From positions 1 through 48,435 of the forward strand of contig JADGQW010000001.1 in assembly GCA_017881505.1 (NCBI GenBank): DNA of 48,435 nucleotides, written 5' to 3'. The notes beneath the pieces are model-generated. The model was not told the origin of the DNA, ran no database searches, and saw nothing but the letters and a program-made list of their open reading frames with translations. Below are positions 1-11,641 of this stretch, in pieces (position 1 is the first letter of the stretch; the number at the start of each line of letters is the position of its first letter). The stretch is from Gemmatimonadales bacterium (lineage in GTDB: Bacteria > Gemmatimonadota > Gemmatimonadetes > Gemmatimonadales > JACORV01). A program made the translations under genes and the position numbers.

Positions 1-368
1 TACTGGCAGACCGGCGCGCCTTCGTTCTGGCCCGCGATCACCGCCGCGCCCACGTAGATCTGGCACGTCTTCGTGGTGCCGTTGTGCGTCGCCGACGCCG
101 ACCAGCCGGTCCCGCTCGGGCTGGCGATCGTCACCGTCACGCCGGCGGACGAACTGAAGGAGGTGCCCAGGTTGCTGGAGTACGTCACGTTGTCGGCGAA
201 ATACGCCTCTTCGGCCGTGACCAGGTTCCGCAGGTCCGACTTCATCGCCGCGATGTACGCCTTCTCCTTCGTGTTCGCGAACTTCGGGATCGCGATGGCG
301 GCCAGGATGCCGATGATGACCACCACGATCAGGAGCTCGATCAGGGTGAAGCCCTTGCTGTTCCTCAC
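1..368 (-). CDS. pilA: Type IVa pilin (major pilin candidate); 3' end at or just beyond the window edge
   Basis: GTG at 368 with GGGAGG 7 nt upstream. Translation VRNSKG|FTLIELLIVVVIIGILAAIAIPKF shows a short leader, the Gly-1/Phe+1/Glu+5 prepilin peptidase motif and a hydrophobic alpha1-N helix. C-terminal Cys-x18-Cys (TKTC...PVC) resembles a D-region disulfide. 122 codons are open down to nt 3; the last 2 nt (TA) could begin the stop codon. Absent from the ORF track because it runs off the window. Confidence 0.9.
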   Translation of the reverse strand, partial: MRNSKGFTLIELLIVVVIIGILAAIAIPKFANTKEKAYIAAMKSDLRNLVTAEEAYFADNVTYSSNLGTSFSSSAGVTVTIASPSGTGWSASATHNGTTKTCQIYVGAAVIAGQNEGAPVCQ

Positions 369-439: not shown

Positions 440-455
440 AGCAACCGACATGCCA
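440..455 (-). promoter_or_regulatory. Sigma-54 (RpoN) -24/-12 promoter for the pilin gene
   Basis: Minus strand reads TGGCATGTCGGTTGCT. This has GG-N10-GC spacing and one mismatch to the TGGCACG-N4-TTGCW consensus. It lies about 70 nt upstream of the pilin GTG, and a sigma-54-dependent NtrC-family activator (pilR) is encoded in the same locus. Confidence 0.75.
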
Positions 456-567: not shown

Positions 568-2391
568 TCAGTGCAAGGGTCGGTACGGCGTCGGGGGCCC
601 CGCGATGAGGACCCGTATCATCCCGAGGTCGGCCCGTGCCGCGGGATCCCTGGGGGCGCGGGCCGCCGCGGAGTCGAGCGCGCCGCGGGCGGAATCCGGC
701 ATCCCGACGGCGATGAACGTCGAGGAGCGGTAGAGCCAGCCGAGGAACGGGTCGCCACCGTGCGTCAGGAACGCCGGCCAGACGGCGCGCGCGCTGTCGG
801 GGCTGCCGAGCGCCAGGAACGCCCCGGCGAGGATCCGCGCCGCCGACGCGTCCCGCGGAGCGGACGCCGCGCGCCGCCGCGCCTCGTCGAGGAAGGCGCC
901 GCGAGACTCCGCGTGCAGCTCGACGTACGCCCGCCCCCACTCGGTCAGGGGCTTCGCCCAGCCGGGCCGCTCCGCGTCGGCGAGGAACCGCCGCGCGAGC
1001 CGGACGTCGCCCGCGTCCGCCGCCGCCTTCGCCGCCTCGATGAGATTCGGCACCTCGAGCGGGTAGAGCTCCGCCGACACGCCGTACTCGGCGAGCGCCG
1101 CCCGGCGACGGCCGAGTCGCTCGAGCACCCGCGCGGCCGCCTGGTGCACCCGATAGGACTCCGGGTGCGCGAGGAGGTCGCGCAGCACGAGGTCGCGGTT
1201 GCTCCGCCACACAGGGATGGCCGCGGTCGTCTTCGCGCCGAAGACGGCCGACACCACGAGCACCACCGCCACCGCCCGCGCGACGCCCACCCGGAGGGAC
1301 AGGGCACGCAGGCCCTCGGCGGCCACGAGGGCGATCCCCGCGGACGCGAGATAGAGCGTCCGCTCGGCGACGACCACGCCGGTGGGGAAGAGGAGGTTCG
1401 CCGTGGGGAGCCACGCGAGCCCCGCCAGGAGAAGGCCGGCCGAGACTGCGCGGTTCCTCCGCCACAGGGCGAACGCGAGGAGGACGAACGCCACGAGGAC
1501 GACGGCGCCGGCCGCGCCCTCAAGCGTGAAGTGCTCGAGCCGCTCGATCACCCGCGGGTGGTAGTCGGGGGAGAGGTCGAACGGCCACACCATGAGCCGC
1601 AGCAGGACAAAGACGGCGGGCAGCATCGTCGCGAGCCGGCCCGCCGTGCCAAGGCCGAAGAAGGTGGGCGCCACCGAGGCGAAGGAGATGTCCCCCTCCA
1701 CCGCGCGCCGCGCGATGAACCACGCGGCGGTGAGCACGGCCGTCGCCGCGTACGTCCGCCACGGGAGCCCCGGATCCCCTTTGGTGCGCGTGGCGAGGTC
1801 GTCGAGCGCCAGGAGGGCGACCGCGACCGCCGCGTGCTCCTTCGAGAGGAGGGCGAGCGCCACCGCGACGAGGAGGGCCCCTTCGAGCGCGAGGGCGGAC
1901 CTGCCCGCGGCGCGCCGGCGGCGCACCGCGCGGGCCAGGAGGAGCGCCGCGAACAGAAAGGCCGCGGCCATCGCCTCCGCGCGCCCCACGAGGTTGGCGA
2001 CCGCCTCCACGTGCACCGGGTGGACCGCGAACAGCACTCCGCCCGCGAGCGCCGCGCCGGGGCCCACGTACACGGCGAGCACGGGGACGAGGAGCGCCGT
2101 GGCCGCCGCGTGCCAGGCGACGTTCACCGCGTGGAGCCACGTCGCGCTCCCGCCCGAGAGCTGCCAGTCCACGGCGAACGAGAGGACGACGAGGGGCCGG
2201 TAGAGACCGGCGCCGTGCTCGGGCGGCCAGTACGGCTGGTCGAAGGCGGCGAGCGCGCCGGCGACGGTGTGGGCCGCGGGGTTCCGCTCGACGATCATCT
2301 CGTCGTCGAGCGCGAAGCGGTTGCCGAGGGACGGCAGGTAGACGACGGCGGCAACGGCCGCGGCGACGAGGGCCCCCCGCCGGACGGTCAT
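568..2391 (-). CDS. TMTC/PMT-like GT-C membrane glycosyltransferase (DUF1736-type core) with C-terminal TPR-like domain, paralog 1
   Basis: Start taken at ATG 2391 (MTVRRGALVAAAV...), not the track start 2508. N-terminal TM followed by loop-1 acidic motif FALDDEMIVERNP, then YRPLVVLSFAVDW and FAVHPVHVEAVANLVGRAE (DUF1736-like). About 10 TM segments, then an about 200-aa helical repeat tail. ATG overlaps the upstream stop by 1 nt (TGATG). Confidence 0.8.
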   Translation of the reverse strand: MTVRRGALVAAAVAAVVYLPSLGNRFALDDEMIVERNPAAHTVAGALAAFDQPYWPPEHGAGLYRPLVVLSFAVDWQLSGGSATWLHAVNVAWHAAATALLVPVLAVYVGPGAALAGGVLFAVHPVHVEAVANLVGRAEAMAAAFLFAALLLARAVRRRRAAGRSALALEGALLVAVALALLSKEHAAVAVALLALDDLATRTKGDPGLPWRTYAATAVLTAAWFIARRAVEGDISFASVAPTFFGLGTAGRLATMLPAVFVLLRLMVWPFDLSPDYHPRVIERLEHFTLEGAAGAVVLVAFVLLAFALWRRNRAVSAGLLLAGLAWLPTANLLFPTGVVVAERTLYLASAGIALVAAEGLRALSLRVGVARAVAVVLVVSAVFGAKTTAAIPVWRSNRDLVLRDLLAHPESYRVHQAAARVLERLGRRRAALAEYGVSAELYPLEVPNLIEAAKAAADAGDVRLARRFLADAERPGWAKPLTEWGRAYVELHAESRGAFLDEARRRAASAPRDASAARILAGAFLALGSPDSARAVWPAFLTHGGDPFLGWLYRSSTFIAVGMPDSARGALDSAAARAPRDPAARADLGMIRVLIAGPPTPYRPLH

Positions 2392-4217
2392 CACCGGGAC
2401 GGCCGGCACTGTGCGAGATCGTCGAGACGGCGGCGCACCTCGGCGCGCGCCCCTTCGGTGCGGATCAGCACGAGGGCCTTTCCGAGCCGGGTTCTGGCTT
2501 CGGCGCACAGCCCAAGCCGGCGCGCCGCGTCGGCCGCGACGAGCTGGAGTCCCGAGCTCTCCGGATGGAAGAAGACGCTGCGCCGCGCGGCTGCGAGGAC
2601 GCGCTGGGGCTCGCCGCGGCGGTCGAACACCGAGGCGGCGGCGTAGACGAGGACCTCGTTGGCCGGGTCGCGGCGGAGCGCGAGGCGCGCGAGCGCCTCC
2701 GCCGAGTCGAGGGCGCCGGCGCGGAATCGCGCCAGGACCGCCTGGGACGCGGCGCCGGAATTGAGGGTGTCCACCGCGTACGCCGCGCTGGAGAACCGGT
2801 CAGCGAGACCGAGGGCACCGGCCGAGAGGTAGTGGAACCCGATCTCCTCGAGGAGCGAGCCGTCCTCGGGGCGGATCCGCGCGGCGGTGAGGAGTTCGCG
2901 CTCACCGGTGACGGCGTCGCCGCGGTCGAACGCCCGCGCCCCGAGGTTCCAGTGGGTCCGGTACGACCGGGGGGCGTCGGCCACGCGCGCGGCGAGGAAG
3001 CGCGCGGGCGTGCTCCAGACGGGGATGCGCGCGAGGGTGCGTGCCGCGAGAAGCGTGAGCAGGAGGGCGGTCGCCGGCCACACGAGCCGATGCCGCGGCA
3101 GCAGTTCCCAGAGCGCGCCGAAGGCGATCGCCACGCCCACCGACGGCAGGTAGAGGAGACGCTCCCCCAGCACTACGCCGGTCGGGAAGGGCACGTTCGA
3201 CGCCACCGAGCCCGCCACCACGAACCACACCACCCCTGCGGTGAACCCTGGCGCGGTGCGCCGCAGACGCCAGGCCGCCACCACGATCGCCGCCACGAGG
3301 ACCGCACCCGCCACGTGCGCGGCATCGAACGCCGTCGAGGGCACGAACTGGTCGGGGGCGTAGTCCGCGGAGAGGCGCAGGGGGAAGGCGAGGAGCCGCC
3401 CCCACTGGAGGTACGCCGGAAGCATGATCGCGAGCCGGGAAGCCCACGTTGTGCCCGCGAGCCCGGCTGCCGAAACGCCGGCGCCGAAGGTGGTGCCGAG
3501 CATAGCGCCGCGCGCCGCCAGGTAGCCCGCCGCCAGCGCGACGACGCCGCACCAGAGGAGCGCGTGCCCCCGGAGCACGGCGCGGAACGCGCGGCCCGAC
3601 GTCCGCGCCGTCCACGCGTCCGCCAGGAGGAGCATCGCCGGGAGGGTGAGGGCGTGCTCCTTCGCGGCGAAGGCCGTCGCCGCTCCCGCCAGCACGACGA
3701 GCGCGAAGAGCGCGCGCCGGGCGCCGCGCGGGGCCTCCGCCGCCGCCCGGGACTCGGCGGCGTACGCGAGCAGCGCGGCGAGGTAGCCCAGCGCCGCGAG
3801 CACCTCCGAGCGGCCGACCACCGGCGCGAACGCCTCCACGTGGACCGGGTGTACGGCGAACCAAAGCGCGGCGACGATGGCGCCCGGGCCGAGGAGCGCG
3901 CTGGCGAGGAGGAGGACGAGGGCCGTCACCCCCAGATGCAGCGCGACGTTCACGGCGTGGAAGACGGCGGGCGATCCGCGCCCCACGGCCCAGTCCACCG
4001 CGAACGAGGCGGTCGTCAGCGGGCGGTAGATCCGGTCGGGGATGTCCCCCGCCCAGTAGGGGCTGGTGACGAGGACGGGCAGATTGCGGAGCGCACGGAG
4101 GCGCGCGTCGTCCTGCACGACGGGCTCGTCGTCGTAAACGAATCCCCCGCGCACTGCGGTGACCGAGGCGGCGAGCGCCACCGCGAGCACCACGGCGTAC
4201 GCTTTAGCGGATGGCAC
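2391..4217 (-). CDS. TMTC/PMT-like GT-C membrane glycosyltransferase with C-terminal TPR-like domain, paralog 2
   Basis: 608 aa. Motifs FVYDDEPVVQDD, YRPLTTASFAVDW and FAVHPVHVEAFAPVVGRSE align with paralog 1. Multi-TM core plus TPR-like tail. GTG start at 4217; start uncertain by a few codons. Confidence 0.8.
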   Translation of the reverse strand: MPSAKAYAVVLAVALAASVTAVRGGFVYDDEPVVQDDARLRALRNLPVLVTSPYWAGDIPDRIYRPLTTASFAVDWAVGRGSPAVFHAVNVALHLGVTALVLLLASALLGPGAIVAALWFAVHPVHVEAFAPVVGRSEVLAALGYLAALLAYAAESRAAAEAPRGARRALFALVVLAGAATAFAAKEHALTLPAMLLLADAWTARTSGRAFRAVLRGHALLWCGVVALAAGYLAARGAMLGTTFGAGVSAAGLAGTTWASRLAIMLPAYLQWGRLLAFPLRLSADYAPDQFVPSTAFDAAHVAGAVLVAAIVVAAWRLRRTAPGFTAGVVWFVVAGSVASNVPFPTGVVLGERLLYLPSVGVAIAFGALWELLPRHRLVWPATALLLTLLAARTLARIPVWSTPARFLAARVADAPRSYRTHWNLGARAFDRGDAVTGERELLTAARIRPEDGSLLEEIGFHYLSAGALGLADRFSSAAYAVDTLNSGAASQAVLARFRAGALDSAEALARLALRRDPANEVLVYAAASVFDRRGEPQRVLAAARRSVFFHPESSGLQLVAADAARRLGLCAEARTRLGKALVLIRTEGARAEVRRRLDDLAQCRPSR

Positions 4218-6304
4218 GCTGGAAGGTATCTTTGGCCATGCCTACCAGCCAGCCGTCCGGCGGCCGCCCGAGCGCGGCCCGCGTCGTGGTCGTCGCGCTC
4301 CTCGCCGCGCTCGCGTTCCTGCCGATCGCCAATTGGATCCCCGGCGGCCACGACACCGACTGGTACGACACCGCCCGCCAGCTCTGGACCCTGGGCAGCC
4401 TCATCGTCGCGGGACTCGCGGTCATCCTCGCCATGTCGGCGGAACGGTACGGCGGGCTCGCCGAGCCGCTCTGGCGACGGCTCGCGGCGCTGCCCCGGCC
4501 CTCCGGACGCGTCGCGGCAGCGGTCCTGGTCCTCGCCGCCTTCGGCGTGTATGCGCTGGTCGCGACGGACGTCTTCAGCCGCCGACCGCTCCTCATCGAC
4601 GAGGTGATCCAGCTCTTCCAGGCGCGGATCTTCGAGCAGGGGCGACTCTGGCTCGCGTCCCCCGGGCACCCGGAGCTGTTCGGCTCGATGCACCTCGTGG
4701 ACCAGGGGGGGCGGATCTACGGGCAGTTCCCGGCGGGAGGCCCCGCCGTGCTCGCGCTCGGCGACGCGCTGGGAGCGGCGTGGCTGGTGGGCCCCGCGTG
4801 CGGCGCCATCGCCGTGGCGGCCTTCATCGTCTTCCTCCGCACCACGGAGCCGGGCCGGGCCACCCGGTGGGCCGCGGCGGCGCTGTTCGCGCTCGCGCCG
4901 TTCACGGTCTTCCAGGCCGGCTCGCACATGAACCACGGCTTCACCCTCGCGGCGCTGCTCGTGGCCACGGCGGCCCTCTCCCGGGTGGTGACCAGCGACA
5001 CTCCGCGGCCCTGGCTCGCCCTCGTCTCCGGCCTCGGCTACGGCATCGCCGCCACCATCCGGCCGACGGACGCGCTCGCCTTCGCCCTGCCGGCGGGGGT
5101 CTGGTACCTCGCGCGGGCGGTGCGCGACCGGCGGCGCCTCAGCGACCTGCTCGCCTCCGGGGTCGGCGTCGCCCTGCCGATGGCCGCGCTCCTCTGGGTG
5201 AACGGCCACACGACCGGCGATCCGTTCCTGTTCGGCTACCAGGTGCTGTGGGGGAAGGAGCACAACCTCGGCTTCCATCGCGCGCCGTGGGGGCCGGTGC
5301 ACACGCCGCTCCGGGGCCTCGAGCTGGTCAACGTCTACTTCCTGCGCCTGCAGCGGTACCTCTTCGAATCGCCGGTGCCTTCCCTGGTGCCGGTGCTCGC
5401 CGCCCTGGCGCTCGCACCCGCGTTCGGCCCGTTCGACCGGCTCCTCCTGACCAGCGCCGGCCTTCTCGTCGGGCTCTACTTCGCCTACTGGCACAACGGC
5501 TTCTTCCTGGGCCCGCGCTTCCTCTACCCGCTCATGCCGGTGCTCGCACTCTGGACGGCGCGGCTCCCCGGCGTCGTGAAGGCGCGTTTCGGGCGCGGCT
5601 TCGCGTGGCGGTTCGTGCTCGCGGCGTTCGCCGTGACTGCCGTGATGGCACTCGCGTTCCAGGTGCCCGACCGCGCCCGGCAGTACCGGAGCGGCCTCTT
5701 CACCATGCGGTGGAACGCGGACAGCACCGCCGCCGCCGACGGGATCCGCGGCGCGCTGGTGCTGGTGCGGGAGAGCTGGGGGAGCCAGGTCATCGCGCGG
5801 ATGTGGGGGCTGGGCCTGACACGCTCGGAGGCGGAGTGGCTGTACCGAAGCGTGGACGTGTGCCAGCTGGACTGGGGAGTCACGCAGGCCGAGCAGCGTG
5901 GCCTGAAGGGGCCCGCCGCGGTCGCGGTCCTGAGACCGCTCACGGCGGACTCGATCCGCGTGGTCGCGACCCCCTTCTCGGCGGACGTCTCCGAGCGCTA
6001 CCTGCCGGGGACCCGGTATGCCGCGCCGTGCGCGGCGAAGGTGCGGGAGGACCGGGAGGGATTCACCCTCTACACGCCGCTCATCCTGTCGCGCTTCGGT
6101 GGGAACGTCTACGTGCGGGACCTGCACGCGCAGGACACCGTGGCGCTGGCGATGTACCCGGGCCGGCCCATCTACCTGGTGCGCCCCTCGGGAGCGGCGG
6201 AGCGCTCCACGCCCCGCTTCTATCCCGTGACCCGCGACTCGCTGGCGCAGGCGTGGGGTGTACCGGTGGCTCGCCTGGGGGCGGCGCCGGCCCCGTCACC
6301 GTGA
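4211..6304 (+). CDS. GT-C fold membrane glycosyltransferase (ArnT/PMT_2-like) with about 230-aa C-terminal extracytoplasmic domain
   Basis: 697-aa ORF with many TM helices. Loop-1 acidic motif LLIDEVIQLFQARIF. High GC3. An alternative start ATG 4238 (MPTSQP...) has GGAAGG upstream and is perhaps more likely. Confidence 0.7.
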   Translation: MARWKVSLAMPTSQPSGGRPSAARVVVVALLAALAFLPIANWIPGGHDTDWYDTARQLWTLGSLIVAGLAVILAMSAERYGGLAEPLWRRLAALPRPSGRVAAAVLVLAAFGVYALVATDVFSRRPLLIDEVIQLFQARIFEQGRLWLASPGHPELFGSMHLVDQGGRIYGQFPAGGPAVLALGDALGAAWLVGPACGAIAVAAFIVFLRTTEPGRATRWAAAALFALAPFTVFQAGSHMNHGFTLAALLVATAALSRVVTSDTPRPWLALVSGLGYGIAATIRPTDALAFALPAGVWYLARAVRDRRRLSDLLASGVGVALPMAALLWVNGHTTGDPFLFGYQVLWGKEHNLGFHRAPWGPVHTPLRGLELVNVYFLRLQRYLFESPVPSLVPVLAALALAPAFGPFDRLLLTSAGLLVGLYFAYWHNGFFLGPRFLYPLMPVLALWTARLPGVVKARFGRGFAWRFVLAAFAVTAVMALAFQVPDRARQYRSGLFTMRWNADSTAAADGIRGALVLVRESWGSQVIARMWGLGLTRSEAEWLYRSVDVCQLDWGVTQAEQRGLKGPAAVAVLRPLTADSIRVVATPFSADVSERYLPGTRYAAPCAAKVREDREGFTLYTPLILSRFGGNVYVRDLHAQDTVALAMYPGRPIYLVRPSGAAERSTPRFYPVTRDSLAQAWGVPVARLGAAPAPSP

Positions 6305-7852
6305 CGGCGGCGGCGCGGGCGGGGGCGGCGGGTGGTGGTCCACCTCGAACGCCGCCATCGGTCCGGGCCACATCATCAGCGGCGTGAGGTAGCCGGGCAC
6401 GAGCTGGCGGAGCGCCTCGACGACCGGCGCCGCGTCGGAGCGGGGGCCCGTGACGATGACGTAATCCACGGCGGAACGGTCGAGGAAGGCGCGGAGCGAG
6501 TCCGGGCCGAACCCCACGTCGCGCCGACCCTCGAGGCGCCACAGGTAGGTGGGCACCGCCCGGCGCCCCGAGTAGAGCCAGAGCAGCGCTTCGTCCTCGC
6601 CCGCCAGCACCGCCGTCGTCGGCGTCGTCCGCTGCACCCACGGCAGGATCGTCTCGAACGTCTCCGAGATCCCGCGCTGCGCGGCGGTCGGCCAGTGCCC
6701 GCGGAATCCGGTGACCTGGTACCGCCCGAAGCCGACGAGCACGGGGACGATGCCCGCCACCGCCAGCGCGCGGAGCCCCCAGCGCCACGCGTCCGTGCGG
6801 GCTCCGCCGGCCCGCCACACCGCGACGCCCCCCATCGCCAGCGCGACGACGAGCACCGGCATCAGCGCCCAGAGGAACCGGTCCGGCGCGTACGGCCAGA
6901 GCAGCACCACCGCGACGTAGAGCACGAGCGACCAGCCGAGGGCCGGGGCGCGGCGCGTCAGGGTGACGGCGCCGACCACGAGCACCGCGAGCGCGGGCAC
7001 GCCGAACCAGGGGTGCCACGCGGGGCGCACCGCGGCGAAGGCCAGGTACCCGAGGGGACGGAGCACGTCCCGGAGGATGTCGGGACCGATCCACCGCCAT
7101 CCCGCCTGGCGCAGCAGGTCCCCATAGGTCCCGTAGTTCGCGGCGAGGACGGCGGGGACCTCCGCGCGGTGCACCGCGGTCCAGACCTGCCACGGGACGA
7201 GGAAGAGGAGCGCCGCGCCCGCCGCGGAGAGCGCCTCCCGGCGCCGGCGCGCGAGGAGGAGGGAGAGAAAGACGCCCCCGGCGATCGCGACGCCGATGGA
7301 ACGCGTCAGGCCCGCGAGGCCCGCGACCGCGCCCGCGCCCGCCGCGAGCGCGAGCGCCCGGCGGCCGGTCGCCTGCACGGCGCCCTCAGCGAGCCACCAC
7401 GCGCCCAGCGCGATCACGAGGAAGAGCGGCTCGGCGAAGAGCACCGTGACCACCGAGAGGAGCGGCACCGCCGTCGCGCCGACCAGGACGAGGATGGCCG
7501 CCGCCGGGGCCGGCAGCGCGCGGCGTCGCGCGAGATACGCAGTGAAGCCCCCCGCGAAGGCGCCGAGGAGCAGCGCGTTCGCCGCGCGGAACAGCACGAC
7601 GTTGTCGGGGAAGGAGGGCCACAGCCGCCAGAGGACCGCGAGGAAGGCGGGATAGAGGGGCGGGTAGTGGACGGCGGCGGGCGTACCCGGGAGGTAGAGG
7701 AGCCGGTAGCCGTGCCCCTCCGCCAGGCTCCGCGCCAGCGCGGTGTAGATGCCGTCGTCGTAGAACACTCCGACCAGCGCGTGCGGCATCAGCGCCGCCG
7801 CCACCGCCGTGGCGACAAGCCCCGTCGCCACCGCCCAGCCCCGCCGTCGCAT
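6296..7852 (-). CDS. GT-C fold membrane glycosyltransferase (ArnT/PMT_2-like)
   Basis: Start taken at ATG 7852 (MRRRGWAVATGLVA...), which overlaps the GT2 stop by 1 nt (TGATG). Loop-1 motif GVFYDDGIYTALARSLAEGHGY is typical of the ArnT/PMT_2 class. About 11 TM segments plus a C-terminal soluble domain. Its 3' end overlaps the convergent gene by 9 nt. Confidence 0.7.
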   Translation of the reverse strand: MRRRGWAVATGLVATAVAAALMPHALVGVFYDDGIYTALARSLAEGHGYRLLYLPGTPAAVHYPPLYPAFLAVLWRLWPSFPDNVVLFRAANALLLGAFAGGFTAYLARRRALPAPAAAILVLVGATAVPLLSVVTVLFAEPLFLVIALGAWWLAEGAVQATGRRALALAAGAGAVAGLAGLTRSIGVAIAGGVFLSLLLARRRREALSAAGAALLFLVPWQVWTAVHRAEVPAVLAANYGTYGDLLRQAGWRWIGPDILRDVLRPLGYLAFAAVRPAWHPWFGVPALAVLVVGAVTLTRRAPALGWSLVLYVAVVLLWPYAPDRFLWALMPVLVVALAMGGVAVWRAGGARTDAWRWGLRALAVAGIVPVLVGFGRYQVTGFRGHWPTAAQRGISETFETILPWVQRTTPTTAVLAGEDEALLWLYSGRRAVPTYLWRLEGRRDVGFGPDSLRAFLDRSAVDYVIVTGPRSDAAPVVEALRQLVPGYLTPLMMWPGPMAAFEVDHHPPPPPAPPPSR

Positions 7853-8580
7853 CAGCGGTGCGGCGGGAAGAGGTTGAACCGCACGATGTGCCACAGTGCG
7901 GCCACCCCGTCACGCCAGTTGATCTTCTTCCCCTCGGCGTAGGTGCGGCCGGCGTACGAGATGGGGAGCTCGTAGATCCGCGCCCGGGCGCGGGCGAGCT
8001 GCGCGGTCAGCTCCGGTTCGAAGCCGAAGCGGTCGGTGGTGAGCACGAGCCGCCGCATCAGGTCCGAGCGGACCATCTTGTAGCAGGTCTCCATGTCCGT
8101 CAGGTTCAGGTCCGTCAGCATGTTCGAGAGGAGCGTCAGGAAGCGGTTCCCCACCGAATGCCAGAAGAACAGGACCCGGTGCGGGCCGCCGAGGAAGCGG
8201 GAGCCGTACACGGCATCCGCGCGGCCGTCGGCGATCGGGGCGAAGAGCAGCGGCAGGTCCGCGGGGTCGTACTCGAGGTCCGCGTCCTGCACGACCATCA
8301 CGTCCCCCGTCGCGGCGGCGATCGCGCTGCGGATCGCGGCGCCCTTGCCGCGATTCACCGGATGGTGGATCACCCGGTGCACCTTCCCCTGCGCGGCGAG
8401 CGCGTCGAGCAGGCGGCCGGTGTCGTCCGAGGAACCGTCGTCCACGGCGATCACTTCCAGCGTCAGGGGGACCGCGGCGAGACGCTCGAACACCCGCGCC
8501 ACCGTCGCGCCCTCGTTGTAGGCGGGCACCAGCACCGAGACGACGGAGCGCGCCGGGTCCCGCAGGACGGGGGCGCTCAC
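7852..8580 (-). CDS. GT2 family glycosyltransferase, polyprenyl-phosphate hexose synthase-like (DPM1/Ppm1/ArnC/GtrB class)
   Basis: 242 aa starting at GTG 8580 (GTGA overlap with the pilR stop). Motifs VLVPAYNEG, AVDDGSSDDT, NRGKGAA, VQDADLEYDP (DxD) and YGSRF. No C-terminal TM helices. Confidence 0.85.
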   Translation of the reverse strand: MSAPVLRDPARSVVSVLVPAYNEGATVARVFERLAAVPLTLEVIAVDDGSSDDTGRLLDALAAQGKVHRVIHHPVNRGKGAAIRSAIAAATGDVMVVQDADLEYDPADLPLLFAPIADGRADAVYGSRFLGGPHRVLFFWHSVGNRFLTLLSNMLTDLNLTDMETCYKMVRSDLMRRLVLTTDRFGFEPELTAQLARARARIYELPISYAGRTYAEGKKINWRDGVAALWHIVRFNLFPPHR

Positions 8581-9944
8581 TCGCCGTTCTCGTAGCGGCC
8601 GAGCTTGCGGTACAGCGTGGACGGATCGATGCCGAGCACCTCCGCGGCGCGGGTCTTGTTGCCCGCCTCCGCCTGGAGGACCCACATGATGTACGCCCGC
8701 TCGACGACGTCCAGCGTCGGGTTGGGATGCACCCGCTCCGCCACCAGCGGTTCCGCGCGGCGCTCGGTGACCCGCGCCGGCAGCGCCGACGCCGGGATCT
8801 CCGGCCCCTTGGTGAGGGTCGTGGCGCGCTCCAGCGCGTTCTCGAGCTCCCGCACGTTGCCCGGCCAGTCGTACGCGAGGATCGCGTCGAGCGCGTCGGA
8901 GCCGATCGTCTTGATCTCCTCGTGCCGCTCCCCCGCGATGCGCCGCAGGAACGCCTCCGCCAGCACCGGGATGTCGTCGCGCCGGGAGCGGAGCGGCGGC
9001 AGGTGGATCGCGATGACGTTGAGCCGGTAGTAGAGGTCGGAGCGGAACCGGCCGGAGCGGATCTCCTCCTCGAGGTCGCGGTTCGTCGCGGCGATCAGCC
9101 GGACATCCACCTTCACCGGCTCGGTGCCGCCGACGGGGATGACCTCCCGTTCCTGCAGGACGCGCAGGAGCTTCACCTGGATCGCCGGCGTGGTCTCGCC
9201 GACCTCGTCGAGGAAGAAGGTGCCCGTCCGCGCCGCGGCGAAGAGGCCCTCGTGGTCCCGCACCGCGCCGGTGAACGACCCCTTCACGTGCCCGAACAGT
9301 TCCGACTCGAGGAGACTCTCCGGGAGCGCCCCGCAGTTGATCGAGACGAACGGCCCTTCGCTCCGCGGGGAGAGCTCGTGGATGTAGCGGGCGATGACCT
9401 CCTTGCCGGTCCCGCTGTCCCCCTCGATCAGCACGGTGCTCTCGGTCGGCGCGACGGTCTCCGACAGCTTCATCACCTCGCCGAACTGCCGCGAGCGCCC
9501 GATCGGGCGCACCGTCTGCGAGCGGTCGCGCCGCCGGATCTCCTGCTTGAGGCTCTTGTTCTCGACCTTGAGGCGCCGGCTCTCCAGCGCCCGCCGGCAC
9601 ATCGCCACGAGCGCCGCGGTCTCGAACGGCTTCTGCACGTACTGATAGGCACCCTGGTTGACCGCCTCGATGGCCGTGCGCAGCTCCGCCTGCGCCGTCA
9701 TCAGGATGACGGGCATCTCCGGGTCCCTCTGGCGCGCCGCCGCCAGGAGGTCCATCCCCGACACCCCCGGCATCCGGATGTCGGTCAGCACCACGTCGGG
9801 GGGCCCCTGGCCAAGCGCGTCGAGTCCCGCCTTCCCCCCCTGCGCGGTGACCACCTCGAAGCCCTCGTTCTTGAAGAGGATCCCCAGGGACACGAGGATC
9901 GCCTGCTCGTCGTCCACGACCAGGATCGTCGGGCGGTCGCTCAC
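8577..9944 (-). CDS. pilR: Sigma-54-dependent NtrC/Fis-family response regulator (PilR-like)
   Basis: 455 aa from GTG 9944 (GTGA overlap with the pilS stop). Receiver domain (ILVVDDE...DVVLTDIRMPG), AAA+ domain (GDSGTGKE, GAFTGA-like GSFTGA, ESELFGH) and a C-terminal Fis HTH (AAEVLGIDPSTLYRKL). The track ORF 8577..11684 is an artefactual upstream extension. Confidence 0.9.
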   Translation of the reverse strand: MSDRPTILVVDDEQAILVSLGILFKNEGFEVVTAQGGKAGLDALGQGPPDVVLTDIRMPGVSGMDLLAAARQRDPEMPVILMTAQAELRTAIEAVNQGAYQYVQKPFETAALVAMCRRALESRRLKVENKSLKQEIRRRDRSQTVRPIGRSRQFGEVMKLSETVAPTESTVLIEGDSGTGKEVIARYIHELSPRSEGPFVSINCGALPESLLESELFGHVKGSFTGAVRDHEGLFAAARTGTFFLDEVGETTPAIQVKLLRVLQEREVIPVGGTEPVKVDVRLIAATNRDLEEEIRSGRFRSDLYYRLNVIAIHLPPLRSRRDDIPVLAEAFLRRIAGERHEEIKTIGSDALDAILAYDWPGNVRELENALERATTLTKGPEIPASALPARVTERRAEPLVAERVHPNPTLDVVERAYIMWVLQAEAGNKTRAAEVLGIDPSTLYRKLGRYENGE

Positions 9945-11641
9945 GCAGCCTCCTCCGCGCCGATGCGCGAGGGCAAGTAGACCGAGAAGGCAGTCCCCCG
10001 CCCCGGCTCGGTGTCGCAGAAGATCAGGCCACGGTGCGCCTGCACGGCGCGCTGCACGATCGGCAGGCCGAGGCCCGTGCCGCCGATCCGGCCGGTGACG
10101 AACGGCTCGAAGAGGCGCGGCAGCACCTCCGCCGACACCCCAGGGCCCTCGTCCCGCACCACCAGGAGCCGCGGGGCCTCCAGCACGACCGAATGCGGCA
10201 CCGCGTCCGGCGCCGGCACCCCGACCTCCACCGTCACGTGCGGCGCGCCGCGCGCCGCCTGGAGCGCGTTCAGCACCAGGTTGAAGACCACGCGATGCAG
10301 CAGGTCCTCGTCCCCCTCGAGGCGCACCGGCCGCTCGGGGGCCACCAGCTCGATCACCGCGTCGGCCGCGCAGTCGGGATGCTGCCGCGCCAGCTGGATG
10401 CCGTGCTCGGCGACGCCGACGAGGTCCAGCGCGGCGGCGCGCGTGACGCGCACCCGCGAGAAGTCGAGGAACTCGCTCAGCAGCCGCGAGAGCCGGTCGC
10501 TCTCGCCGACGATGAGCCCCGCGAGCGTCCGCTCGTCGCCGCCGCCCCCCGACATCCGGGCGAGCTGCTCCACGGCGCTCCGGATGGAGGCCAGCGGATT
10601 GCGGATTTCGTGCGCCAGCGACGCGGCGATCTCCGAGACGGCCTCGAGCCGCTCCGTCCGCAGGTGCAGCGCCTCCATCCGCTTCGCCTCGGAGAGGTCC
10701 TGGAAGATCACCGTGACCGACGGGGGCTCCGCCGGGTCCACGTGCACCGGCGTCGTGGTGAAGCCGATCGGCCAGACCCGGCCTCCCGAGTGCGCTTCCG
10801 CCTCGGTGCGCGAGACCCGCAGGCCGTCCGCCGCGGCGCGCCGGATCGCCTGCCCGAGGGGCGGCGCGATCTCGTCGATCAGCTCCAGGACCGGACGGTC
10901 CCGCAGGTCCATCGCGCGGATCCCGAGCAGTGCCTCGGCCGTCGGGTTCGCGTACACCAGCCGGCCGTTGCCCCCGACGGTCATGATCCCCGAGCGGATC
11001 TGCTGCAGGATGTCGCCCGCCTCCAGTCGCACGCGGCGCAGCTCCGCCTCGAGGGTCTGCTGCACGGCCCCCGCCGCCTGCACGCGGCTCGCGAGGTACC
11101 CCGTGGCGATCGCCACGCCCCAGAACACGGCGATCTGGAGCGTGAGCGCCGGCGTCATGCCGAACGCCTGCCCCACCAGCACGTCCGCCGCGTACAGGAA
11201 CCCCGCCAGGAGCGCGATCAGGAGCCCGTTGGCGAGGGGCATCAGCACGGTGTTGAACGCGATGACGAGGATGTAGATGGAGGCGAAGTACGAGTAGGGC
11301 CCGAAGATGTGCACGACCGCGGTGACCAGCGCCAGGTCGAACAGCGCCTGCGCGTACAGGAAGGTCGCCCCCACCTGCCGCGGCCGCAGGTGCGACCACC
11401 AGTACGCCGTCGCGGTCACCGCGAGCGTCGCCGTGACCGAGACCGACGCCACCAGCAGCTGGGTCAGGTCGGCCCGCCACCAGCTCAGCGCCGCGGCGAG
11501 GAAGACGCCCGCGGCCAACGAGAGGCGGCCGATGTACAGCCATCGGAGCATCCCGCGGCGGGACGGGACGGCCCCCGGACTCTGGAGGCGGCGCCAGGGC
11601 GCCAGGCGACGTTCGGTTCCGGGTGGGGAGAGTGCGGTCAT
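9941..11641 (-). CDS. pilS: Sensor histidine kinase, PilS-like (polytopic N-terminus, PAS, HisKA, HATPase)
   Basis: About six N-terminal TM helices, a PAS-like segment (IMTVGGNGRLVYANPTAEALLG), H-box SLAHEIRNPLASI, and G-boxes DEGPGV and GTGLGLPIV. Start ATG 11641 chosen; 11692 or a later Met is possible. Confidence 0.85.
   Translation of the reverse strand: MTALSPPGTERRLAPWRRLQSPGAVPSRRGMLRWLYIGRLSLAAGVFLAAALSWWRADLTQLLVASVSVTATLAVTATAYWWSHLRPRQVGATFLYAQALFDLALVTAVVHIFGPYSYFASIYILVIAFNTVLMPLANGLLIALLAGFLYAADVLVGQAFGMTPALTLQIAVFWGVAIATGYLASRVQAAGAVQQTLEAELRRVRLEAGDILQQIRSGIMTVGGNGRLVYANPTAEALLGIRAMDLRDRPVLELIDEIAPPLGQAIRRAAADGLRVSRTEAEAHSGGRVWPIGFTTTPVHVDPAEPPSVTVIFQDLSEAKRMEALHLRTERLEAVSEIAASLAHEIRNPLASIRSAVEQLARMSGGGGDERTLAGLIVGESDRLSRLLSEFLDFSRVRVTRAAALDLVGVAEHGIQLARQHPDCAADAVIELVAPERPVRLEGDEDLLHRVVFNLVLNALQAARGAPHVTVEVGVPAPDAVPHSVVLEAPRLLVVRDEGPGVSAEVLPRLFEPFVTGRIGGTGLGLPIVQRAVQAHRGLIFCDTEPGRGTAFSVYLPSRIGAEEAA

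Follow-up and report, generated by a model that had tools for sequence, protein, structure and literature searches.

The PilS-PilR two-component systems of Pseudomonas aeruginosa, Myxococcus xanthus and Geobacter sulfurreducens pair a membrane sensor kinase with an NtrC-type activator of sigma-54 promoters; their genes stand in the order pilB-pilT-pilC-pilS-pilR ... pilA, and pilA, which in these model organisms directly follows pilR, is preceded by a sigma-54 promoter. A locus with a like kinase (multi-helix membrane domain, PAS, HisKA, HATPase), a like regulator, the same order of pil genes and the same kind of pilA promoter is found in the stretch of DNA studied here. This window is an entire contig of 48,435 bp (C202) from a Gemmatimonadales metagenome-assembled genome (MAG) of 2.8 Mb and 71% G+C. 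Two genes stand in it directly behind pilR, one for a soluble family 2 glycosyltransferase (GT2) and one for a membrane glycosyltransferase with a predicted GT-C fold.

Enzymes of these two kinds are familiar partners, as the pairing of a DPM1-like GT2 with a GT-C protein is the standard arrangement for synthesis of a polyprenyl-phosphate sugar in the cytoplasm and its transfer in the periplasm. The enterobacterial arn genes are controlled by a two-component system, PmrAB, that is encoded elsewhere. In Pseudomonas, glycosylation of the pilin protects pili from phages and affects their assembly. The P. aeruginosa enzyme TfpW is a GT-C arabinosyltransferase whose donor, a monosaccharide linked to a lipid carrier, is made in the cytoplasm, and which modifies Ser/Thr residues of the pilin (bioRxiv 10.1101/2020.04.19.049825; PMC11841053); in Pseudomonas the genes accessory to the pilin are found 3' of pilA, and for tfpY at least, co-expression with pilA under the control of PilSR has been shown (PMC11841053). 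For the locus of the window we propose, with moderate confidence, that pilS, pilR, GT2 and GT-C form one operon, in which the glycosyltransferase pair begins a variable island between pilR and pilA, is translated largely by re-initiation, and likely modifies the pilin.

Results

Overlapping codons at the three junctions

The four genes lie on the minus strand in the same direction, with zero intergenic DNA between them, from the ATG at 11641 to a stop codon at 6296 (TGA, 6298-6296); these identities and overlaps are read directly, and the coordinates of all features are collected in Table 1. A sequence-only reading of this DNA had placed overlapping stop and start codons of the form GTGA, GTGA and TGATG at the three junctions. 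They occur exactly at the positions claimed, and the N-termini of the orthologs back the start codons that produce them.

Table 1. Coordinates of the features of the window that are discussed in the text.
Feature	Position	Strand	Remarks
Promoter/operator-like palindrome TTGCGTTCTGCAA	11669..11681	-	28 nt 5' of the pilS ATG
pilS-type sensor histidine kinase	9941..11641	-	566 aa; Pfam, hydropathy, motifs, synteny
pilS/pilR junction, GTGA	9944-9941	-	kinase TGA 9943-9941, regulator GTG at 9944; 4-nt overlap
pilR-type NtrC-family response regulator	8577..9944	-	455 aa; Pfam, NCBIfam, PDB matches
pilR/GT2 junction, GTGA	8580-8577	-	regulator TGA 8579-8577, GT2 GTG at 8580
Soluble GT2 glycosyltransferase	7852..8580	-	242 aa; polyprenyl-phosphate sugar synthase type
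GT2/GT-C junction, TGATG	7854-7850	-	GT2 TGA 7854-7852, ATG of next frame 7852-7850; 1-nt overlap
GT-C-fold membrane glycosyltransferase	6296..7852	-	518 aa; AlphaFold2 (AF2) model and Foldseek
DUF2142/LA_3751-like membrane protein	4211..6304	+	convergent; 3' end overlaps GT-C 3' end by 9 nt
TMTC-like membrane protein with TPR tail	2391-4217	-	weak Pfam TPR, TMTC_DUF1736
TMTC-like membrane protein with TPR tail	568-2391	-	weak Pfam TPR, TMTC_DUF1736
Sigma-54 promoter-like site TGGCATGTCGGTTGCT	440..455	-	before pilA; one mismatch to TGGCAC-N5-TTGCW
pilA, type IVa major pilin	3..368	-	cut by contig end; GGGAGG Shine-Dalgarno

At the first junction, an ATG or GTG overlapping the pilS stop codon is available as the pilR start in 57 of 67 related pilS-pilR junctions, and a GGAGG-type Shine-Dalgarno precedes it in 47 of those 57; the corresponding element of the window is GGAGGAGG, 4-12 nt 5' of the GTG. 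The 4-nt overlap of the second junction is retained in the same genus and in sister genera (L051-L054, L057), again with ATG or GTG as the overlapping start of GT2; with the next in-frame GTG as its start, the enzyme would lose its first beta-strand. At the third junction, the N-terminus of the window protein (M-x-R-x-x-W-A-A-A-G-L ... VGVFYDDGIY) can be aligned with the orthologs of a genus that we label g2, where GT-C comes directly after pilR and a GTG start lies one codon 5' of the position of the window's ATG. The register of GT-C relative to the GT2 stop is conserved in 20 of 22 related junctions between these genes.

In three further genera (g3, g4 and g5) the conserved N-terminus of GT-C coincides with a CTG, which overlaps the GT2 stop codon as CTGA, and in the GT-C genes of L054, L057 and L060 a canonical start is absent ahead of the first membrane helix. 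More specifically, in L036:10037, L037:10021, L054, L057 and L060 there is no ATG, GTG or TTG at the conserved N-terminus of GT-C, only the CTG of the CTGA overlap. Many of the public gene calls for GT-C orthologs with 52-56% identity are 501 aa long, about 17 aa shorter than the 518 aa of the window protein. Judging from the sequences, these shorter calls and the CTG junctions may reflect either initiation at CTG or obligatory re-initiation.

Within the window, Shine-Dalgarno sequences are present before pilR, pilC and pilA; none was found upstream of GT2 and GT-C in a search for such elements. Both of these genes thus display the sequence pattern by which coupled operons are recognized, namely a stop/start overlap combined with a downstream gene that has no ribosome-binding site of its own. 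As a background for these observations, neighbour statistics were computed for the whole assembly from a crude gene call based on GC3. Among 1147 same-strand neighbour pairs, a 4-nt overlapping start is available in 316 (28%) and a 1-nt overlapping start in 61 (5%). Overlapping junctions are therefore not unusual in this genome, being found between about one third of same-strand neighbours.

Gene order and spacing among relatives

The comparison covered 20 wide loci from three families together with the best 80 loci obtained by scanning GTDB species genomes, every one of them from Gemmatimonadota. Their synteny and spacing, which are likewise direct observations, follow a single pattern: on one strand we find pilS-pilR, optionally a methyltransferase gene, then one to six genes of the GT2, GT-C, TMTC-like or DUF2142-like kinds, and finally pilA, in one to four copies per locus. 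The order pilR-GT2-GT-C is that of this genus, of genera g3/g4 and of family f3; in genus g2 it is pilR-GT-C followed by a GtrB-like GT2, and in family f2 it is pilR-GT-C-GT-C-GT2-pilA. A survey of the genes downstream of pilR in relatives, which the sequence-only reading had suggested as a check, thus finds glycosylation genes tightly behind pilR, with a content that varies and a joining that is kept.

The distances between the genes are equally regular. From pilS to pilR the median spacing is -4 nt, and it is again -4 nt from one island gene to the next. For the step from pilR to the first gene of the island, the upper bound on the spacer has a median of 68 nt, with overlaps of -4, -17 and -20 and spacers of 10-13 nt, and in about 60 related loci pilR is followed by glycosylation genes without a real spacer. 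Island and pilA are more than 100 nt apart in all but one of 56 cases (median gap 265 nt), and pilC and pilS are about 200 nt apart; spacers longer than 100 nt are consistently found only before pilS and before pilA.

Some loci have wider gaps after pilR, and those of about 700 nt between pilR and GT2 were considered as possible promoter regions; this was ruled out, as a tightly joined methyltransferase gene fills them. Ten of the 13 pilR-to-island gaps above 100 nt (those near 700 nt) contain such a SAM-methyltransferase gene. It encodes a class I enzyme of about 240 aa, lies between pilR and GT2 in part of family f3 with overlaps or very short spacers on both sides (L044, 15300-14560 region; L068, L085, L089, L108, L110, L112, L115, L116, L118, L127), and is absent from the genus of the window.

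Homologs were counted over 201 sampled genomes of the order, and GT2 orthologs over 121 genomes of the phylum. Orthologs of pilR are present in 189 of the 201 genomes and GT-C homologs in 108. Loci were compared from 18 genomes of the order without a GT-C homolog: pilA lies within about 300 nt of pilR in 10, including one complete genome of 4.64 Mb, a different island of the GT-C type (DUF2142-like or TMTC-like) is present in five, and three have other arrangements. Among genomes with a plain pilS-pilR-pilA order that were included in the GT2 search, the ortholog is absent in G031, G044, G068 and G080 and present in G020. The island is optional and, where present, is placed always at the site between pilR and pilA.

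The author of the sequence-only reading was not aware of a description of the arrangement for pilSR. Full-text literature searches returned no account of a pilS-pilR operon that includes glycosyltransferase genes, and no work on the pili of Gemmatimonadota; among genomes, the arrangement is common across the Gemmatimonadales and does not set this one apart.

Promoter-like elements and terminators

The palindrome upstream of pilS has a single match in the window and a single match in the whole assembly, at this position. The same palindrome, as TTGCATNNTGCAA, precedes pilS at this position in every locus of family f1 and in many loci of family f2; in family f3, TTGCATTTTGCGA stands before pilS and is followed 17-18 nt further on by GATACT or ATACTT, and in genus g2 pilS is preceded by TTGCAT-18-TAGAAT. 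Comparison of these sequences suggests a conserved promoter-like element with a possible operator, which probably marks the 5' edge of the unit. A plain sigma-70 promoter was considered for this element and set aside: it would fit genus g2 (TTGCAT-17/18-TAGAAT) and family f3 (GATACT), and in the genus of the window the spacing to any -10-like hexamer is 20-22 nt, for which reason we call the motif promoter/operator-like only. An alternative start of pilS, GTG 11692, lies 5' of the conserved motif, and for this reason the ATG at 11641 is favoured.

A scan of the window for sigma-54 promoters gave no site inside or before the unit from pilS to GT-C, the only one being that which precedes pilA; autoregulation by PilR through a sigma-54 promoter is therefore unsupported here. 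Scans for consensus sigma-70 promoters and for intrinsic terminators covered 17.6 kb. The former gave one site, before pilB, with the caveat that the promoter consensus of the host phylum is not established; the latter gave three candidates, none of them meaningful, against 3.5 expected from shuffled sequences.

Identity of the encoded proteins

The labels given to the four genes in the sequence-only reading hold by domains, context and predicted fold. The kinase has about 5-6 N-terminal membrane helices (hydrophobic segments within residues 35-183) followed by PAS, HisKA and HATPase_c domains recognized by Pfam, and its H-box reads HEIRNP with the histidine at position 344. The regulator consists of a receiver domain, a sigma-54 AAA+ domain with GSFTGA at 222 and a Fis-type HTH; its PDB matches are of the NtrC family, and no cut-off of a curated NCBIfam equivalog was reached. 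On the same strand, 5' of pilS, are pilB, pilT, pilC and a small gene with a signal peptide, in the synteny pilB-pilT-pilC-(omp)-pilS-pilR, and rpoN is encoded in the genome. We use the names pilS and pilR because of this domain architecture and pil context: the features expected of a PilS-PilR system, that is the architecture of the kinase, a regulator of the NtrC type, linkage to pilBTC and to a pilA gene with a sigma-54-like promoter, and rpoN, are all found. In L040 / L121 (G048:C310) pilR is matched in two parts, residues 1-180 followed by residues 219-452, that lie in different frames, which could represent a frameshift, a pseudogene or an error in the assembly of the MAG.

GT2 matches PF00535 in Pfam at 5.8e-35, carries DAD at 99-101, and has no membrane helix by hydropathy. 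Its top NCBIfam matches are AglJ, PpgS, ArnC and a Dol-P-hexose transferase, all below the cut-off: no curated NCBIfam equivalog was reached, AglJ scoring 109 bits of the 325 needed. The top PDB matches are the Pyrococcus Dol-P-Man synthase (5mlz) and ArnC. In sequence, GT2 thus resembles lipid-phosphate sugar synthases (DPM1, ArnC, AglJ). Its ortholog is present in 99 of the 121 genomes of the phylum and often stands apart from the pil genes. Elsewhere in the class, in other orders, it recurs beside pilA or inside a pilS-pilR-GT2-TMTC-TMTC-pilA array, and in other classes of the phylum it is not near pil genes. GT2 identity is 62-79% across the order and 50-67% across the phylum, GT-C being far less conserved (35-55%). 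In genus g2 the soluble GT2 is absent from the locus, and a 381-aa GtrB-like GT2 with a membrane tail follows GT-C in its place.

The 518-aa protein is named hypothetical in public records. It gave no match in searches of Pfam and NCBIfam, and a profile search of PDB sequences returned only a chance match to an aquaporin. Four of 13 relatives match PMT_2 weakly, and the weak matches of the relatives also include PMT and GT87; the protein itself could not be placed in any named sequence family (PMT_2, GT87, ArnT etc.). Its identification required the predicted structure. An AlphaFold2 model built with 13 homologs has a pLDDT of 90.6 and a pTM of 0.90, and in a Foldseek search of the PDB matches 1-32 are all GT-C enzymes, with TM-scores up to 0.55; they include STT3, DPY19, AftA, ArnT, PglB, AftD, PimE, Emb, ALG3 and PMT. 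The pair D32-D33 (VGVFYDDGIY), in the first periplasmic loop following the first helix, shows no variation among 13 orthologs and paralogs, and the C-terminus forms a periplasmic alpha/beta domain. On the strength of this model the GT-C label is correct.

The remainder of the island and pilA

At the 3' side, GT-C meets the convergent DUF2142-like gene, whose ATG at 4211 in turn overlaps the start of a divergent TMTC-like gene (GTG 4217), so that there is no intergenic DNA on either side of it. The inversion was considered as an assembly artefact and this was ruled out, as a same-genus MAG is inverted likewise; in other families the homolog is on the pil strand. Because of this convergent gene the co-directional unit ends with GT-C in this genus, and the TMTC-like genes (4217-568) and pilA must therefore be expressed separately. 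Homologs of the TMTC-like pair are located between GT-C and pilA in relatives, and the pair represents the remainder of the glycosylation island between pilR and pilA.

In this genome pilA is about 6 kb downstream of GT-C. In other genera of the same family (G009:C5, G012:C1, G003:C7, G030:C29, G069:C23, G042:C22) the nearest same-strand pilA copies lie 13-17 kb past GT-C, the distance from pilR to pilA being far greater there. Sites similar to the sigma-54-like site of the window are found 82-98 nt before pilA in three of the relatives scanned, L043, L044 and L046, and pilA is presumed to be a target of PilR, which would drive its transcription. The C-terminal domain of the window pilin contains 31% Ser/Thr. 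Median Ser/Thr content is 26.6% in island-adjacent and 21.7% in island-less pilins (p = 0.0014, uncorrected for phylogeny).

Contig C52 (3058-3641) contains a 100% match to the last 32 residues of pilA, plus a second pilA copy with 80% identity; the assembly was probably broken within a tandem pilin array. In many relatives of family f3 (L041, L042, L046, L069, L072, L074 and others) a second, divergent kinase-regulator pair is found directly after the pilA copies, with 29-34% and 43-46% identity to pilS and pilR, respectively.

Discussion

A proposed operon, with probable re-initiation at the glycosyltransferase genes

Taken together, the comparisons make the operon reading well supported, if not proven. 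Transcription would start at the conserved promoter-like element immediately 5' of pilS, and most translation of GT2 and GT-C would come from ribosomes that finish the gene before and resume at the codon where the two overlap. The glycosyltransferase genes are the first of a variable glycosylation island that is fused to the regulator operon in many Gemmatimonadales, with pilA retaining a sigma-54 promoter of its own. From the arrangement of codons and genes we infer co-transcription, translational coupling and re-initiation: the missing Shine-Dalgarno sequences of GT2 and GT-C, the overlaps and the orthologs in which only a CTG is available fit termination and re-initiation with a low expression of the enzymes.

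The locus had been described as a single translationally coupled unit. One transcription unit agrees with the synteny, the spacing and the 5' motif; the coupling is what these patterns suggest. The accompanying statement that the overlaps leave no room for internal promoters was too strong, as it overlooks promoters embedded in coding sequence, and stoichiometric co-expression of the regulators and the enzymes does not follow from overlapping codons; a pattern of re-initiation implies no 1:1 stoichiometry.

With regard to function, soluble GT2 would charge polyprenyl phosphate with a sugar on the cytoplasmic side of the membrane, a putative flippase would move the lipid-linked sugar across, and GT-C, by way of its periplasmic Asp-Asp loop, would pass the sugar on; the acceptor would most probably be Ser/Thr residues of pilin that is not yet assembled. 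We infer both the donor and the pilin acceptor from the genes and their positions. The constant location in the pilR-pilA interval, the presence of TMTC-like enzymes that end in TPR tails and the Ser/Thr-rich pilin suggest O-glycosylation of the pilin, which is likely to be the role of GT2 and GT-C; a general role in the envelope is possible.

Several observations weigh against the proposal as a whole. Overlapping junctions are so common among same-strand neighbours in this genome that on their own they count for little, promoters inside coding sequence are possible, and the -10 element of the proposed pilS promoter is poor in this genus. The difference in Ser/Thr content between the two groups of pilins is small, and the flippase step is without an identified candidate gene. 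The GT2 ortholog is strongly conserved and lies far from pil genes in G013, G041 and G020, so that it may serve other GT-C enzymes too.

Alternative explanations

An explanation that we consider unlikely, yet the most serious of the alternatives, keeps the operon and has GT2 and GT-C act elsewhere in the envelope, for example on lipid A, LPS, exopolysaccharide or periplasmic proteins other than the pilin; their position after pilR would then be either a historical accident or the sign of a broader PilSR regulon. The wide distribution of the GT2 ortholog and the modest enrichment of Ser/Thr in island-adjacent pilins are what one would expect in this case, and the GT-C fold matches enzymes with lipid or glycan acceptors (ArnT, AftA, Emb, PimE) besides those with protein acceptors. 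Modification of an unrelated target is harder to reconcile with the placement of the island, which in about 100 loci occupies the pilR-pilA interval and no other position with respect to the pil genes, or with the absence of GT2, too, from four of the five island-less genomes checked. The island also holds TMTC-like enzymes with TPR tails, and in eukaryotes such enzymes are protein O-mannosyltransferases.

Less probable again is that the overlaps merely reflect compaction of the genome, the glycosyltransferase genes being transcribed mainly from promoters embedded in pilR or GT2 and translated independently. The genome-wide frequency of overlaps is compatible with this, and embedded promoters could have escaped a sigma-70 scan that yielded one site in 17.6 kb and relied on a consensus not established for the phylum; moreover, the type of junction varies among relatives (-20, -17, -4, -1, or +10 to +13 nt). 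However, the tight joining to pilR is kept whether GT2, GT-C, a TMTC-like gene or the methyltransferase comes next, despite the changing content of the island, and conserved non-coding motifs are found only before pilS and pilA. Independent translation is also spoken against by the missing Shine-Dalgarno sequences of GT2 and GT-C, and several orthologs have no canonical start at the conserved N-terminus.

Finally, that one or more start codons are mis-assigned and the overlaps not real is very improbable: a GTG before a TGA arises easily at 71% G+C and in-frame alternatives exist (GTG 7831 for GT-C, GTG 11692 for pilS), but the downstream alternatives would cost GT2 its first beta-strand or GT-C part of its first membrane helix, the N-termini of the orthologs coincide with the overlapping starts, and GTG 11692 is found 5' of the conserved promoter-like motif.

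Returning to an operon whose enzymes modify the pilin, its most far-reaching form would be a functional circuit and no mere accident of packing, which we regard as doubtful. GT2 and GT-C would be made at a fixed ratio to PilS and PilR, under a promoter that does not depend on pilA, PilS would read the pool of pilin modified by GT-C, and in sister genera GT-C would be produced only by re-initiation at CTG. In Pseudomonas, PilS senses pilin in the inner membrane. If such a circuit were true, the modification machinery would be in place before the pilin is induced.

Comparison with known systems

Every part of the locus is of a known kind, and overlaps are ordinary in this genome. What the Gemmatimonadales appear to have is a variable and swappable set of lipid-linked-sugar enzymes fused to the pilS-pilR operon, beside a pilin gene with a separate promoter. 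If confirmed, this would amount to a different regulatory logic for the modification of a surface filament, and it would give a probable role to a large unannotated GT-C family (hypothetical proteins that lack a Pfam domain) in a phylum widespread in soil.

Compared with the model PilS-PilR systems, two to five glycosylation genes are inserted here, the first of them joined to pilR by overlapping codons, whereas the island-less Gemmatimonadales resemble the model organisms in having pilA directly after pilR. With regard to the enzymes themselves, the ArnC/ArnT, Ppm1/Pmt, GtrB/GtrC and DPM1/PMT pairs offer the same combination of a DPM1/ArnC-like GT2 with an adjoining GT-C protein whose first periplasmic loop is acidic. 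The window GT2 differs from ArnC and GtrB in being without their membrane tail, and neither member of the window pair scores above the cut-off of any curated family. Unlike the enterobacterial arn system, the regulator and the enzymes share one putative operon here.

TfpW appears to be the closest functional analogue of the window GT-C. The likeness to TfpW/TfpO would lie in a gene for a membrane glycosyltransferase at a pilin locus, GT-C being always situated in the interval between pilR and pilA and TfpW being set beside the window protein by description and not by sequence. The tfpW gene is found immediately downstream of pilA, whereas here the genes are upstream of pilA, 6 kb away from it and inside the regulator operon, and the GT2 for donor synthesis is encoded beside the transferase.

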